The notes under the pieces: model-generated
The model's input: only the letters and a program-made list of their open reading frames with translations
Database searches by the model: none
Told to the model about the DNA's origin: nothing
Source of the DNA: a virus
Lineage: Duplodnaviria > Heunggongvirae > Uroviricota > Caudoviricetes
Length of the DNA stretch: 64,000 bases
Direction: 5' to 3' (one strand)
Virus record (IMG/VR): IMGVR_UViG_3300043418_000226
In this document: positions 34,711 to 41,824 of the stretch, one piece after another
Numbering within the stretch: position 1 is the first letter of the stretch
How the letters are laid out: the number at the start of each line of letters is the position of its first letter
Program-made: the position numbers and the translations under genes

Positions 34711-34796
34711 CGGAAAGTGAGAGGCTCGAACTCTCGCGGCTGTAACACCCTACCTGTTTAGCAAACAGGCCCCTTCACCAACTTGGGTAACTTTCC
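34711..34796 (-). tRNA. tRNA-Ser(GCT): tRNA-Ser (anticodon GCU)
   Basis: acceptor GGAAAGT/ACTTTCC, loop TT-GCT-AA, long variable arm, T-loop TTCGAGC. Confidence 0.8.
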
Positions 34797-34801
34797 TTTT
34801 G

Positions 34802-34873
34802 TTGTCCCATCAGGATTCGAACCTGAAATGACCGGCTCAAAACCGGTAGTGTTAACCGTTACACCATGGGACA
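34802..34873 (-). tRNA. tRNA-Gln(TTG): tRNA-Gln (UUG)
   Basis: acceptor TGTCCCA/TGGGACA, loop TT-TTG-AG, T-arm GGTTCGAATCC. Confidence 0.8.
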
Positions 34874-34969
34874 GTAAAGCCAATCCCATAGATTGGCAGC
34901 TCAACTTACGGTATTGAGTTTGAGGGAACAAGTCCCATACCACGTCCTTCACCCTTTGGGTACCGACAG

Positions 34970-35041
34970 AGCAGATAGGCGGAATCGAACCGCCGTCTCC
35001 AGATTGGAAGTCTGGAGTAATAACCCCTATACGATATCTGC
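34970..35041 (-). tRNA. tRNA-Gly(TCC): tRNA-Gly (UCC)
   Basis: acceptor GCAGATA/TATCTGC, loop CT-TCC-AA, T-arm GGCGGTTCGATTCCGCC. Confidence 0.8.
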
Positions 35042-35180
35042 GAATTGTGTAGGATGCGCCCACCTACACAGCACTTTTAGTAGTATGTTACCACGCTACC
35101 ACGTTTCGAGTTCTTTTATGACCACCTCTGAAGGTCCTCCGCCAGGGTGTGTTTCACGTTAAACCCGGAGACGCTTATGG

Positions 35181-35255
35181 TAGAAAGTATAGGATTCGAA
35201 CCTATGGCCCCCTCGGTGTAAACGAGGTGCTCTGAACCAACTGAGCTAACTTTCC
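35181..35255 (-). tRNA. tRNA-Val(TAC): tRNA-Val (UAC)
   Basis: acceptor GGAAAGT/ACTTTCT, loop TT-TAC-AC, CCA encoded. Confidence 0.8.
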
Positions 35256-35341
35256 AAATTTGGGTAGAATCAGACGCGTTCTGTCTACCGAGACCTTGTC
35301 GTTAAACTTCCGAAGAAGCCAGAGCGGACCAAGACACTTTG

Positions 35342-35415
35342 TGGACCAGCCTGGGCTCGAACCAGGGACCTATTCATTATGAGTGAAGTGCTCTAACCAA
35401 CTGAGCTACAAGTCC
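35342..35415 (-). tRNA. tRNA-Met(CAT): tRNA with anticodon CAU (Met or Ile2)
   Basis: loop CT-CAT-AA, T-arm CCTGGTTCGAGCCCAGG. Confidence 0.7.
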
Positions 35416-35467
35416 AAATCGTTAATATCAATGATATTTTATTTAATCGTCGATATCCGTGATATTT

Positions 35468-36226
35468 TTATTCTTCGTCTCTTAAAACAAATTCAATGAT
35501 GGTAAACCACAAATCCTCATCATCGTATATCTTGATGTCTTCAGGTTTTAAACTGTAAGTACACATATCACAATTCCACAATGAATGGATTAATCCATCT
35601 TTAAAATCTTTTTCGTCACGAATGTTCAATAAATCAATATGACATTTTAATGGATTCGGAAGATATTTTTTTTCCAACATAACCATATTTTGTCGATACA
35701 GTTTCCAATTTTCTTTACTTAACTCTTCGTCCTTCCTCGATCCGTATTGTCCCGTTTCCCACCACTCATCGTGTAAACGTTTATTTTCTTCAGTGTCTTC
35801 ATCTGACACTTTAATTTGATTACGTGACTTAATCATATCAGTCGTAATCGTTGGTAAATGTCTTGTTACAATTTCTTCACCAACATAATATCCAAATTGA
35901 TATTCAGACGTTAATTTTTCTTTAGATTCAATTCTTTCTTTCATTCTTCTTTCCTTATACTCAGGACTTCTAACTTCATCTAAGATTCGATTAAGTGATG
36001 ATGAACGTTGGATTGATTCGGCAATCTTAACTCCGTGGTCGTTTTTCCATTCTTCAAATGTAAACGTTGAAGTCGGGTTACCAATTAAAAAATTCTTGTA
36101 CTGTGTTTCTAATGTTGACATAGGTTTTGTTTTTTTACTTATTGAGAAGTATTCATCTAAAGATTCAATGTATGTTTTACCATCTTCAGTTGGAAACTCA
36201 TTTGATAAATGTTTTTCTCTGTTCAT
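35468..36226 (-). CDS. hypothetical protein within the tRNA array
   Basis: 252-aa ORF. Confidence 0.6.
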   Translation of the reverse strand: MNREKHLSNEFPTEDGKTYIESLDEYFSISKKTKPMSTLETQYKNFLIGNPTSTFTFEEWKNDHGVKIAESIQRSSSLNRILDEVRSPEYKERRMKERIESKEKLTSEYQFGYYVGEEIVTRHLPTITTDMIKSRNQIKVSDEDTEENKRLHDEWWETGQYGSRKDEELSKENWKLYRQNMVMLEKKYLPNPLKCHIDLLNIRDEKDFKDGLIHSLWNCDMCTYSLKPEDIKIYDDEDLWFTIIEFVLRDEE

Positions 36227-36239
36227 AATATTTTATTTG

Positions 36240-36361
36240 TGAGTTACGGGGGATTCGAACCATATGTATCATTACTGCAGTTTTGATAACACTTACTAAC
36301 CTCAGTCTTTCGACACCTGACTTACCGGCAGGCCCTGATTCCCTCATCAGATAGGTAACTC
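36240..36361 (-). other. tRNA-like element of atypical length (~121 nt)
   Basis: complementary termini GAGTTAC/GTAACTC and a GGTTCGAATCC T-loop-like segment; the interior cannot be folded as a standard cloverleaf. Confidence 0.3.
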
Positions 36362-36378
36362 ATTTTAATTAATAATTG

Positions 36379-36460
36379 TGGGAGTAGTAGGACTCGAACC
36401 TACGAACTCGAAAGAGGGAAGATTTACAGTCTTCTGCAATTGCCGCTATGCGATACTCCC
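36379..36460 (-). tRNA. tRNA-Tyr(GTA): tRNA-Tyr (GUA)
   Basis: acceptor GGGAGTA/TACTCCC, loop CT-GTA-AA, long variable arm. Confidence 0.8.
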
Positions 36461-36654
36461 ATATCAAAGTTTAACTCAGTTTTTAGACCGCTATTAATAC
36501 CTTTTACCTTTACTCTCAAATTACTTCGATACAGGAATCGAACCTGCGTTTGGACCGTCATCCCGTAGTGCCACTCTACTAATCTTTTCATTTTACCCTC
36601 AAGAGATAACTTTCGTCTGTCATCGTATTCAACCTTATATAGTTAAACTTTTTG

Positions 36655-36726
36655 CTGGCCCGGTAGGAATCGAACCTACATAAGTTGATTAACAGTCAAC
36701 CGTAATAACCCTTATACGACAGGCCA
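36655..36726 (-). tRNA. tRNA-Asn(GTT): tRNA-Asn (GUU)
   Basis: stem GTTGA/TCAAC, loop CT-GTT-AA, T-arm GTAGGTTCGATTCCTAC. Confidence 0.75.
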
Positions 36727-36733
36727 ATTTCAG

Positions 36734-40459: not shown

Positions 40460-40507
40460 ATTTTTTCGTACGAAAAAGTGCGTTTGATTACACTTTTCCT
40501 GACGTAG

Positions 40508-40579
40508 AGGTCCCATAAGGATTCGAACCTTAACTTTAACATTCGTAGTGTTAGGTGCTATCCGTTACACCATAAGACC
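40508..40579 (-). tRNA. tRNA-Arg(ACG): tRNA-Arg (ACG)
   Basis: stem TAACA/TGTTA, loop CT-ACG-AA, T-arm TAAGGTTCGAATCCTTA. Confidence 0.75.
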
Positions 40580-40607
40580 CTTTACTGTTTACCGTTTACA
40601 GTAAACA

Positions 40608-41069
40608 TTATTTACCCAACGAATCTTTATTTGAAATCGTTATTGGATTTAAACCAACAAAGTCTTTGATAATTTTTCTAACTTCGTTATTACTTGTCCA
40701 AACAATACTGTGTTCAGATTCGGGATTATATTCACCTTCAACCATATAAACCACTATAGTATTTGGTTCTAAAGTTAGGAATCCATGTGCTTTATCATTT
40801 TTAATTAACACTGCATTAGAATCGTCAATAACTTCAAATTCAGTTTCTCCGGTTTCAATATTGACAGCAAAATCGACAATCTTACCCTGAACGACTTTAA
40901 TGTATTTTGTTTGTGGTGGGTTCGTTTGATAATGTAACCCCCTAAAGGTGTATTCTTTATCATTAATACTAACTGAACATTGATCCCACTTCATACCTAA
41001 TTCGGTCGTTGATAATGGGGTGTACGACCCTCGGCTATCCTTAAACGTTTTATGTTCTATTTTTTCCAT
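40608..41069 (-). CDS. dTDP-4-dehydrorhamnose 3,5-epimerase (RmlC)-like cupin
   Basis: FRGLHYQTNPPQTKYIKVVQGKIVDFAVNI and NDKAHGFLTLEPNTIVVY align with the RmlC signature. Confidence 0.7.
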   Translation of the reverse strand: MEKIEHKTFKDSRGSYTPLSTTELGMKWDQCSVSINDKEYTFRGLHYQTNPPQTKYIKVVQGKIVDFAVNIETGETEFEVIDDSNAVLIKNDKAHGFLTLEPNTIVVYMVEGEYNPESEHSIVWTSNNEVRKIIKDFVGLNPITISNKDSLGK

Positions 41070-41275
41070 TGTGTTTTTCTATTATGTTTCCAAGTTCGAT
41101 ACATTCTCATTTGAAAACTCATTATACATTTATTTGGGTTCTTATACCCTCTACGATATCTTGGATAGAAATTATATCCTTCATCCCAATATGGGTCGAA
41201 TTTATCGTTTGTTACTATTTTATACTCTTTGTTGTGAGTTGTCGTTTGACTTACTTTGTTTTTGAACGGTTTCAT
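41057..41275 (-). CDS. hypothetical small protein
   Basis: 72-aa ORF. Confidence 0.35.
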   Translation of the reverse strand: MKPFKNKVSQTTTHNKEYKIVTNDKFDPYWDEGYNFYPRYRRGYKNPNKCIMSFQMRMYRTWKHNRKTQWKK

Positions 41276-41334
41276 ATATTAGGGATTTAACCTAATGCAT
41301 GTCGAATTGTATTTTCATAGTTTTTATTTATTTG

Positions 41335-41403
41335 CACAAATTGAAAGAATCGAACTTTCTCCTATGGTTTTGGAGACCATTTGGCTACCTTAGCCCAACT
41401 TGT
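41335..41403 (-). tRNA. tRNA-Trp(CCA): tRNA-Trp (CCA)
   Basis: acceptor ACAAGTT/AATTTGT, stem ATGGT/ACCAT, loop CT-CCA-AA. Confidence 0.75.
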
Positions 41404-41408
41404 ATTGG

Positions 41409-41480
41409 TACTGCGACGGGGAATCGAACCCCGGCCTCATCATGGAAAGTGATACGTGTTAACCTCTTCACTACCGCAGC
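41409..41480 (-). tRNA. tRNA-Glu(TTC): tRNA with anticodon UUC (Glu-like, atypical C37)
   Basis: acceptor GCTGCGG/TCGCAGT, loop CT-TTC-CA, T-arm CGGGGTTCGATTCCCCG. Confidence 0.55.
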
Positions 41481-41486
41481 ATATTG

Positions 41487-41561
41487 TGACCCCGAATGGA
41501 TTCGAACCATTGACTCCATCATTAAAAGTGATGTGCTCTAAACCAACTGAGCTACGAGGTC
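41487..41561 (-). tRNA. tRNA-Lys(TTT): tRNA-Lys (UUU)
   Basis: acceptor GACCTCG/CGGGGTC, loop CT-TTT-AA. Confidence 0.8.
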
Positions 41562-41565
41562 ATTG

Positions 41566-41638
41566 TGGGCCCTACAGGAATCGAACCTGTTCCTCTAGTT
41601 CTTCAGACTAGCGTACGCACCAGCTATACCAAAGGCCC
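41566..41638 (-). tRNA. tRNA-Phe(GAA): tRNA-Phe (GAA)
   Basis: acceptor GGGCCTT/AGGGCCC, stem CTAGT/ACTAG, loop CT-GAA-GA. Confidence 0.8.
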
Positions 41639-41645
41639 ATTATTG

Positions 41646-41717
41646 TGTTTACGGCTGGATTCGAACCAACGACAGCTGACGTATCAGGTCAGAACTCTAC
41701 CACTGAGTTACGTAAAC
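41646..41717 (-). tRNA. tRNA-Ile(GAT): tRNA-Ile (GAU)
   Basis: acceptor GTTTACG/CGTAAAC, stem CTGAC/GTCAG, loop CT-GAT-AC. Confidence 0.8.
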
Positions 41718-41751
41718 AATTTATTCACCAAAATTTCAAAGAACCATTTTG

Positions 41752-41824
41752 TGGACCGTCCCGGCCTCGAACCGGGGACTCGACAGTGCAAGTGTCGTGT
41801 GTTAACCATCTATACCAACAGCCC
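41752..41824 (-). tRNA. tRNA-Ala(TGC): tRNA-Ala (UGC)
   Basis: stem CGACA/TGTCG, loop CT-TGC-AC, T-arm CCCGGTTCGAGGCCGGG. Confidence 0.8.

Follow-up and report, generated by a model that had tools for sequence, protein, structure and literature searches.

A stretch of viral DNA of 64,000 nucleotides (nt), from the IMG/VR record IMGVR_UViG_3300043418_000226 and hereafter called the window, carries at positions 34710–41824 an array of transfer RNA (tRNA) genes that appears to represent a non-redundant, minimal and wobble-complete decoding set with one tRNA per decoding class. In total, 26 tRNA genes for 20 amino acids were found within ~7 kb, all on one strand. The element that carries them is an uncultivated freshwater jumbo phage, T4-like and with a genome of ~319 kb. 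We consider it probable that the array is a functional and complete phage tRNA set, which would permit translation free of host tRNAs and serve as a replacement or insurance pool within a larger translation-maintenance island, with the fine-tuning of codon supply being the less likely purpose.

By using ARAGORN at its default settings, 24 tRNAs were identified within 34710–41824, every one on the minus strand, and 23 of these 24 were confirmed by the Rfam tRNA model RF00005 at its gathering threshold of 29 bits, with tRNA-Ser(GCU) (34711–34796) scoring 55.7 bits in the E-value run. Rfam added two genes missed by the ARAGORN defaults, namely tRNA-Asp(GUC) (39200–39272, 50.1 bits) and a CAU tRNA (40017–40084, 33.1 bits), both of which were also picked up by ARAGORN at a 90% threshold (-ps90). 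The scores of all 26 genes ranged from 33.1 to 70.2 bits with E-values of ~1e-3 to 1e-13 per gene, and their G+C contents were 41–62%, compared with 32% for the genome, which is also the value of the window. Further, the T-loop motif GGTTCRANYCC occurred 47 times in the window versus 9.95 times expected, a count that 0 of 100 shuffles reached. Taken together, the E-values, the raised G+C and the T-loop motif excess exclude chance. ARAGORN calls at -ps80 were numerous, overlapping and on both strands and were rejected as noise, except for one at 36241–36322 that has independent support from a T-loop and from conservation. The preliminary description of this DNA, which was based on hand folding, had listed the same 26 genes with a coverage of 20 amino acids and 12 distinct anticodons starting with U; all of its genes, isotypes and anticodons were matched by ARAGORN and Rfam, with outer coordinates within 1 nt, and the automated finders gave neither far fewer nor different isotypes, the outcome that it had named as contradicting its list.

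The individual genes also have the features of bacterial tRNAs. In 25 of the 26 genes, the anticodon loop comprises 7 nt and has U33 and a position-37 purine, the exception being one of the two Glu genes (copy a, with C37). Bacterial identity features include C1-G72 in tRNA-Pro and U1-A72 in tRNA-Gln and tRNA-Asn, and the discriminator is G73 in Trp, Asn, Asp and Ser and U73 in Cys and Gly. Only the Val gene and one Glu gene encode the CCA end, which 24 of the 26 genes lack.

Read along the minus strand, the array starts with tRNA-Ala(UGC) (41751–41824; Rfam 48.9 bits, with Rfam scores given likewise below and each gene called by ARAGORN at its defaults unless noted), followed by tRNA-Ile(GAU) (41645–41717; 66.6 bits), tRNA-Phe(GAA) (41565–41638; 61.7 bits), tRNA-Lys(UUU) (41486–41561; 70.2 bits), tRNA-Glu(UUC) copy a with its encoded CCA and the loop CUUUCCA (41406–41480; 57.3 bits) and tRNA-Trp(CCA) (41334–41403; 39.5 bits). 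The pyrimidine at position 37 of Glu copy a belongs to a gene that is 97% conserved in L105, one of the compared relatives and other phage arrays, which are labelled L002, L097, L103, L104, L105, L177 and L183–L187. Then come tRNA-Arg(ACG) (40507–40579; 56.5 bits), tRNA-Cys(GCA) with U73 (40389–40459; 35.5 bits), tRNA-His(GUG) (40098–40171; 63.1 bits), in whose acceptor stem two U-U mismatches were seen, an atypical CAU tRNA (40016–40091; 33.1 bits, or 36.9 bits as 40017–40091; ARAGORN -ps90), the predicted initiator tRNA-fMet(CAU) (39797–39869; 62 bits), tRNA-Thr(UGU) (39571–39644; 66.4 bits) and tRNA-Asp(GUC) with the loop CU-GUC-AC (39199–39272; 50.1 bits; ARAGORN -ps90). The next genes are the type II tRNA-Ser(UGA) (38905–38990; 53.7 bits), tRNA-Glu(UUC) copy b with a canonical loop (38268–38340; 53.1 bits), the type II tRNA-Leu(UAA) (37676–37761; 50.7 bits), tRNA-Arg(UCU) (37556–37630; 67.7 bits), tRNA-Pro(UGG) (37476–37548; 49.9 bits), tRNA-Leu(UAG) (36733–36813; 55.4 bits), tRNA-Asn(GUU) (36654–36726; 60 bits) and the type II tRNA-Tyr(GUA) (36378–36460; 56.1 bits). 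The array ends with a predicted lysidine-modified tRNA-Ile2(CAU) that would read AUA (35341–35415; 64.1 bits), tRNA-Val(UAC) with an encoded CCA (35178–35255; 69.8 bits), tRNA-Gly(UCC) (34969–35041; 64.6 bits), tRNA-Gln(UUG) (34801–34873; 60.1 bits) and the type II tRNA-Ser(GCU) (34710–34796; 55.7 bits). Just upstream of tRNA-Ala, a strong 12–14-bp hairpin (41832–41863) with T runs on both strands was observed where the array adjoins the divergently oriented plus-strand genes, which begin at 42170.

The anticodons show the design of the set, in which 26 genes cover 25 decoding classes. Seven four-codon boxes are each served by one tRNA with a uridine at position 34 (U34; Leu-UAG, Val-UAC, Ser-UGA, Pro-UGG, Thr-UGU, Ala-UGC and Gly-UCC) and the CGN box by Arg-ACG. 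Eight NNY boxes are served by tRNAs with a guanosine at this position (G34; Phe, Tyr, His, Asn, Asp, Cys, Ser-GCU and Ile-GAU) and five NNR boxes by U34 tRNAs (Leu-UAA, Gln, Lys, Glu and Arg-UCU), with Trp-CCA, the three CAU genes and the second Glu gene, the sole duplicate, forming the remainder. Isoacceptors with C34 were confined to CAU and CCA, and G34 was absent from every family box. Decoding of CGU, CGC and CGA by tRNA-Arg(ACG) would require editing of A34 to inosine via the host TadA.

To relate this set to the codons used by the phage, codon usage was counted over 57 open reading frames (ORFs) comprising 16,168 codons. The third position was occupied by A in 38.5%, T in 37.2%, G in 12.7% and C in 11.7% of the codons, and the AT-rich codon usage assumed previously was thus confirmed, with 76% A or T at this position. 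Standard wobble left without a reader only those codons of the seven family boxes that end in C (536 codons, 3.3%) and CGG, which is unreadable by an ICG anticodon and makes up 2 of the 513 Arg codons, a rarity that fits a set with Arg-ACG as its only CGN reader. Therefore, 96.7% of the phage codons are readable by standard wobble, and nearly all of them would be if superwobble operates, the C-ending family-box codons calling for either superwobble or an extended reading by cmo5U.

A different account of the same anticodons is that the tRNAs compensate for codon usage, boosting the phage's own A/U-ending codons that are under-served by a host of different usage, which is the classical hypothesis (summarised in PMC10264068). 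This would accord with the A and T shares of the third position, with the 13 of 26 genes that carry U34 and are Watson-Crick cognate to A-ending codons, with the A-ending codon being the one used most in Ala, Glu, Lys, Gln, Leu, Arg, Pro, Ser and Thr, and with the sole duplicate, Glu-UUC, which serves the second most used codon, GAA. However, the set is complete rather than selective, as even rarely used boxes are served (CGN with 0.7% of codons, CUN with 1.8%, Cys with 0.8% and Trp with 1.2%), whereas the most used codon, AAA (7.6%), has a single tRNA gene. The dominant U-ending codons of Gly, Val, Ile, Asn, Asp, Tyr, Phe, His and Cys are only wobble-read, and the favoured codons GGU (59% of Gly) and GUU (53% of Val) have no G34 tRNA. 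Moreover, the likely host phylum is itself often AT-rich, and a difference in host usage is presumed in this account. The presence of rare-box tRNAs and the lack of G34 tRNAs for GGU and GUU indicate that the set displays completeness rather than a matching of preferred codons, and we regard codon compensation as unlikely. The bias to A/U-ending codons in the preliminary description was correctly described for the U34 tRNAs, but the G34 half of the set was misread, since the NNY tRNAs are Watson-Crick cognate to C-ending and not to U-ending codons, and its match to codon usage is not the most economical account of a pattern that corresponds to a minimal complete set including the rare boxes.

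Completeness of the set also depends on the three CAU tRNAs, which had been proposed earlier to be an initiator, an elongator Met and an Ile2 tRNA. Sequence discriminators for these three classes have been described (Silva et al., 2006; PMC1635315), in which the initiator is recognized by a 1:72 mismatch, G2-C71, C3-G70, A11-U24, G12-C23 and R29-G30-G31/Y39-C40-Y41, while a purine at position 3 or a pyrimidine at position 70 marks tRNA-Ile(CAU) to the exclusion of Met and fMet, with C4-G69 being frequent in it. The gene at 39797–39869 has A1 opposite A72, G2-C71, C3-G70, A11-U24, G12-C23 and AGG/CCU at 29–31/39–41, and is by these discriminators the initiator tRNA-fMet. The gene at 35341–35415 has A3-U70 and C4-G69, as do its orthologues in L105 and L097, the Escherichia coli genes that match it best encode tRNA-Ile and have a CAT anticodon, and its anticodon stem covaries among the orthologues; it is typed as tRNA-Ile2 with a predicted lysidine modification. 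An Ile2 tRNA is needed by this phage because AUA makes up 30% of its Ile codons, with which the presence of an Ile2-type CAU tRNA fits. The window ORFs that were scanned include no tilS gene, and TilS is presumed to be supplied by the host.

In the third CAU tRNA (40016–40091), the D stem comprises 3 bp and is preceded by an insertion of 2 nt, and the anticodon stem is UCGGU/GCCGA. Its C3-G70 and paired U1-A72 are compatible with an elongator, its acceptor sequence, A11-U24 and G12-C23 are initiator-like, and a comparison with E. coli tRNAs gave no match. In L105, compensatory changes were found in its acceptor (A5-U68 to G-C) and T stem. It may thus be the elongator tRNA-Met, assigned by exclusion only, or an initiator-derived paralogue. 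Accordingly, of the proposed trio, the initiator and Ile2 could be typed and the three genes are non-redundant, while the elongator stands by exclusion only.

Conservation of the array was evident from the relatives. L104 and L105, whose SmpB proteins are 58% identical to that of the window, carry the same 25 tRNAs in the same order, or 26 when the third CAU tRNA is included. Most orthologous tRNAs are 90–100% identical, and compensatory changes among them point to purifying selection on tRNA structure. In contrast to these, Phe, Pro, Asp, Gly, Ser-UGA, Thr, both Leu and Gln have identities of 55–79% with their anticodon and slot unchanged. The identities to L002 and L105, respectively, are discordant: 69% and 97% for Asn, 68% and 95% for Tyr, 99% and 55% for Pro, and 100% and 66% for Gly. 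In a three-way alignment, the breaks fell at the tRNA borders with near-identical flanks. Because the anticodon and slot are the same while the bodies diverge, slots and anticodons appear to be conserved and tRNA bodies exchanged. Glu-UUC copy b is 100% identical in L002 and L105, and an identical gene was found in phages with differently ordered arrays.

These patterns led us to a tentative model, which we hold to be possible yet doubtful, in which the array is a fixed-slot cassette system, with constant order and anticodons, bodies that are repeatedly swapped at gene borders for alleles that diverge by 30–45%, and tRNA-like elements in the spacers. If true, it would imply diversifying selection on tRNA bodies, for example from an arms race with tRNA nucleases or from adaptation to the synthetases of different hosts.

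The spacers between the tRNA genes hold four such tRNA-like elements. The first, a 27th tRNA-like gene at 38544–38631 on the minus strand (Rfam 37.5 bits; ARAGORN '???'), is present in L002 and has intact acceptor, D and T arms with an abnormal anticodon region (a 6-nt loop GUAAGA, or 31 nt against the 17 expected by Infernal), and it looks to be derived from Leu-UAA. The second (element A; 36241–36322, minus strand) has a perfect T-loop motif at 36251–36261, a poor cloverleaf that ARAGORN calls at -ps80 only, and 98% identity over 114 nt in L105. The third (element B; 36513–36605, minus strand, with a T-loop at 36534–36544) lies in the Asn-Tyr spacer, which is 89–96% identical in relatives; its D and T arms are accompanied by an acceptor of 3 bp and an outer helix, and a 4-bp hairpin with a GACG tetraloop replaces the anticodon arm. 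Two compensatory double changes, GUAG/CUAC to GUGG/CCAC and GGAU/GUCC to GGGU/GCCC, were found in element B, and a coding role through an overlapping 55-amino-acid (aa) ORF was ruled out by a frame-breaking 1-nt indel in L002. The fourth (element C; 39428–39522, minus strand, with a T-loop at 39441–39451), whose structure was read by eye, combines D and T arms with an acceptor of 7 bp (TTGATTA/TAATCAA), carries ~45 nt where the anticodon arm would be, and is 81–83% conserved in L002 and L105. One further element next to the GOLLD RNA (29579–29664, described below) brings the tRNA-like elements whose anticodon arm is defective to at least five. The elements at 38544–38631 and 29579–29664 were not counted as decoding tRNAs because they fail the canonical anticodon-loop feature. 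Conserved elements of this kind between the slots could be processing punctuation or decoys.

Such elements resemble pseudogenes, and one might therefore view the array as a decaying, hitch-hiking island, whose tRNAs were gathered by recombination or mobile elements and are only weakly selected, with completeness being incidental. An HNH endonuclease that lies within the array and is absent from relatives, and the occurrence of the same Glu tRNA in phages with quite different arrays, would also be expected under it. Nevertheless, accumulation would hardly yield exactly one gene for each decoding class and just one duplicate, order and anticodons are conserved in relatives at 58% SmpB identity, replaced alleles always keep their anticodon, and compensatory substitutions maintain the stems, which makes the hitch-hiking account very improbable.

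The exchanged tRNA bodies bear on another proposal, which overlaps with the replacement pool and names one specific driver for it, namely that the array mainly replaces host tRNAs cleaved by nucleases and that the phage versions were selected to be nuclease-insensitive. Phage tRNAs have been proposed to counter tRNA-depleting host defences (PMC10264068; PMC11555353), so that precedent exists. An RNA-repair cassette with a kinase, an Rnl1-like ligase and a cyclic-phosphate-processing domain lies 11 kb away, Glu copy a has a non-canonical C37 loop, and the replacement of fixed-slot bodies by 30–45% divergent alleles, discordant among relatives, is as would be seen under diversifying selection. 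On the other hand, all anticodon loops except that of Glu copy a are canonical, the mosaic pattern could come from ordinary phage recombination, a set for 20 amino acids exceeds the need as nucleases usually target few tRNAs, and the host nuclease is hypothetical here. We therefore judge a pool shaped mainly by counter-defence to be quite unlikely.

The context of the array is consistent with the broader replacement-pool view. The array is part of a 15-kb single-strand island that is rich in RNA genes. SmpB is encoded directly downstream of it (33798–34229, minus strand; Pfam PF01668, E=2.8e-43; NCBIfam TIGR00086, 146.9 bits with a cut-off of 119.1 bits), and a transfer-messenger RNA (tmRNA) with the tag ATSNVAVV* was found at 27271–27679 on the minus strand (ARAGORN; Rfam RF00023, 72.6 bits versus a gathering threshold of 47), so that both partners of the trans-translation pair are present. 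In IMG/VR, ~140 viral contigs with SmpB relatives were seen, many of them 300–480 kb long. The conserved 3′ domain of GOLLD RNA occupies 29671–30059 on the minus strand (Rfam RF02032, 273.4 bits versus a gathering threshold of 150), spanning model positions 1–416 of 416, in the same orientation as the array and 4.6 kb from it. Directly 3′ of GOLLD lies the further tRNA-like element (29579–29664, minus strand; weak CAU call by ARAGORN; Rfam 34.9 bits). Its 7-bp acceptor and its T arm are perfect, its anticodon loop UGCAUUA, which has G33, is non-canonical, and a terminator-like hairpin comes next at 29486–29505. The pair of GOLLD and tRNA-like element is kept in L002, where the latter is 97% conserved, and GOLLD also occurs in L097; the element could set the GOLLD 3′-end via cleavage by RNase P or RNase Z. 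L104 and L105 have a tmRNA and lack both GOLLD and the suppressor tRNA described below; as the syntenic array of L105 exists without GOLLD, this RNA is dispensable for the array.

An amber-suppressor tRNA with a CUA anticodon is located at 30846–30919 on the minus strand (ARAGORN; Rfam 58.4 bits), 3.8 kb from the array, in agreement with the ~4 kb given previously. The ARAGORN label 'tRNA-Pyl' for it was set aside as a naming convention, with nothing to suggest pyrrolysine. Among deposited phages, the CUA tRNA of the Prevotella Lak megaphage Lak-B2 matches it best (82% over 55 nt). The suppressor is conserved in close relatives, lying inside the array in L177 between Glu and Leu-UAA. When TAG was read as sense, no real gene was lengthened in the window; TAG ends 3 of the 57 ORFs, and read-through would add 3–9 codons. 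In the 3.8 kb beyond the window, no TAG-interrupted gene was found either, and the portal and protease genes are intact under the standard code. Recoding of TAG, TGA and TAA in the window was rejected, with no gene interrupted by TAG and with TAA recoding inflating ORFs solely through AT-rich DNA; thus TAG recoding is not shown here despite the CUA tRNA. At the position of the suppressor in the window, tRNA matches of 126–130 nt (45–56 bits) with a ~55-nt insertion in the anticodon region were observed in L105 (13284–13409), L097 (16084–16210) and L103 (8306–8435). They were rejected as suppressor orthologues, are absent from the window, and may be intron-containing or permuted tRNAs.

A probable RNA-repair cassette, judged from its protein families, was found 11 kb from the array at 52060–54240 on the minus strand. 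It consists of a cyclic-phosphate-processing receiver-domain (cREC) protein (52060–52533), a T4 Rnl1-family RNA ligase (52526–53566; 72.6 bits to an NCBIfam equivalog with a cut-off of 242) and a small AAA_33 P-loop kinase (53815–54240). A ClpB-like AAA+ protein at 54890–56902 follows it. Outside the window, a 63-aa ribosomal protein bS21 is encoded between the portal and prohead protease genes on the short contig L174 (7861–8052), ~2.6 kb past the 3′-end of the window.

From the genes, anticodons, completeness, conservation and context described above, we infer the expression and charging of the array and the selective reason for it as follows. The array would be transcribed as polycistronic precursors and processed by the host RNase P and RNase Z. 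A sigma-70 promoter scan was uninformative (62 sites versus 57 expected) and does not cover the promoters of Bacteroidota, so we infer the transcription units as well. The phage mRNAs could then be translated without any host tRNA species, while the phage tRNAs would still rely on the host synthetases, the CCA-adding enzyme for the 24 genes without CCA, TilS and TadA. Such a replacement pool may sustain translation when host tRNAs are depleted, degraded or cleaved in a long jumbo-phage infection. The array would be one module of a translation-maintenance island with tmRNA, SmpB, the amber suppressor and GOLLD, with RNA repair and bS21 encoded elsewhere in the genome. The replacement-pool view fits the adjacent ribosome-rescue and RNA-repair genes and the published counter-depletion hypothesis.

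Several observations weigh against this view. First, the decoding of a whole four-codon box by U34 depends on the modification state set by the host, and the A-rich third position allows a codon-matching model to predict the same U34 pattern. Second, the third CAU tRNA is atypical, and if it is not the elongator, the set would be without an elongator Met and not fully self-sufficient. Third, tRNA-His (40098–40172) encodes G-1 with A73 opposite, whereas the bacterial norm is G-1:C73. In addition, the set depends on host aminoacyl-tRNA synthetases and modification enzymes, none of which was seen in the 64-kb window. Finally, the host is placed at phylum level only, and depletion of the host tRNAs is a premise.

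The array is interrupted by several protein-coding genes. An HNH endonuclease of the homing type (176 aa) is encoded between Pro and Leu-UAG (36883–37413, minus strand; PHROG 1271, E=3e-14); the site is empty in L002 and L105, which identifies the HNH gene as a mobile insertion. Between Trp and Arg-ACG lies a 153-aa cupin ORF resembling dTDP-4-dehydrorhamnose 3,5-epimerase (40608–41069, minus strand; PF00908, E=7.5e-24). An ORF of 252 aa (35468–36226, minus strand) had no Pfam, PHROG, NCBIfam or PDB match, and for it and an array-embedded ORF of 144 aa these four collections gave nothing usable, with a sigma-factor trace at E=0.21 only. A 217-nt insertion with a 64-aa ORF was noted between Cys and His (40172–40388), and several further small ORFs are present inside the array.

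The identity of the phage was established from contigs and proteins. Positions 23798–44229 of the window recur with 100% identity within a 318,764-bp metagenome contig of the JGI (3300048625, Ga0485287_000013), and the window encodes a T4-type large terminase (TerL). The identical short contig L174 runs beyond the window end and encodes a T4-type portal, the 63-aa bS21 and a prohead protease (S77). A contig longer than 200 kb together with these viral hallmark genes, namely the T4-type terminase, portal and prohead protease, identifies the element as a jumbo phage, as had been claimed from the tRNA set. The terminase is at least 83% identical on more than 590 IMG/VR contigs, the largest of 333 kb. 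In a DNA comparison of the window with deposited phages, only single-tRNA matches (Flavobacterium, crAss-like, Bacillus and huge phages) and no related genome were found, and the phage was therefore placed by proteins and metagenomic contigs.

Host-like auxiliary genes comprise a SusC-type TonB-dependent receptor with a CarboxypepD_reg domain (6979–9612, plus strand), a GMP-reductase/IMPDH-family enzyme (12585–13628, minus strand) and a run of glycosyltransferases with a TylF-type methyltransferase (14450–21613, plus strand). Relatives of the SusC-like protein with 66–70% identity were found solely on contigs of freshwater Bacteroidetes metagenome-assembled genomes. These contigs may be mis-binned phage DNA, so the host assignment holds at phylum level only, and the host probably belongs to the freshwater Bacteroidota.

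Complete tRNA sets, tmRNA with SmpB, S21, tRNA ligation and GOLLD by tRNA islands have all been published already for large phages. The huge phages of Al-Shayeb et al., 2020 have up to 67 tRNAs together with tmRNA, SmpB, S21 and tRNA ligation genes (PMC7162821), and the present phage resembles jumbo and huge phages in its >200-kb genome, its clustered tRNA set for 20 amino acids, tmRNA, SmpB, S21 and RNA-repair genes. Xanthomonas phage XacN1 has 56 tRNAs covering all 20 amino acids (PMC5852040), whereas the present set is non-redundant, with 26 genes for 25 decoding classes. The present phage has in common with T4 its type of morphogenesis genes, the clustering of tRNA genes and a ligase of the Rnl1 family that is accompanied by end-healing partners. 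T4 has 8 tRNAs and the PNK/Rnl1 tRNA-repair pathway. In contrast to T4, the tRNA set here covers all 20 amino acids, and end-healing would fall to a separate small kinase and cREC protein rather than a T4-type PNK.

Minimal tRNA sets are also known in Mollicutes, such as Mycoplasma capricolum. Plastids have minimal tRNA sets that use superwobble (PMC3413147). The present set shares with plastids and Mollicutes one U34 tRNA per family box, G34 for NNY, U34 for NNR, several CAU tRNAs and the avoidance of CGG with Arg-ACG. However, the plastid and Mollicute sets carry the translation of a whole organelle or cell, whereas the phage set is a viral accessory, and superwobble requires an unmodified U34, the state of which depends on the host in the phage set.

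Prevotella Lak megaphages reportedly reassign the TAG stop codon, in work said to be that of Devoto and colleagues in 2019 and Borges and colleagues in 2022. The present phage has a related CUA tRNA and, like them, would have Bacteroidota hosts, but differs in having no TAG-interrupted gene in the window or the 3.8 kb past its end. GOLLD beside tRNA islands has been described for phages, prophages and Mycobacterium tRNA arrays (Kretsch et al., 2025; PMC12286853, citing Morgado et al., 2020). As at the published loci, GOLLD here lies near a tRNA array in the same orientation and is joined to a tRNA-like element; unlike at those loci, GOLLD is followed on its 3′ side by this element, whose anticodon loop is non-canonical.

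The main value of this locus thus lies in three points: a non-redundant design for decoding, the exchange of tRNA bodies slot by slot, and tRNA-like elements that lack a normal anticodon arm. The array illustrates cleanly, in nature, how small a tRNA complement, here 26 genes, would make a virus independent of host tRNA species, and adds weight to the view that the tRNAs of large phages form a replacement pool rather than fine-tune codon supply. If confirmed on more genomes, slot-wise body replacement would be a population-genomic signature of selection on phage tRNA sequences. One abundant uncultivated freshwater lineage joins a full tRNA set, tmRNA-SmpB, an amber suppressor, GOLLD and RNA-repair genes, and the locus is therefore a convenient system for asking about the functions of GOLLD and of phage trans-translation.

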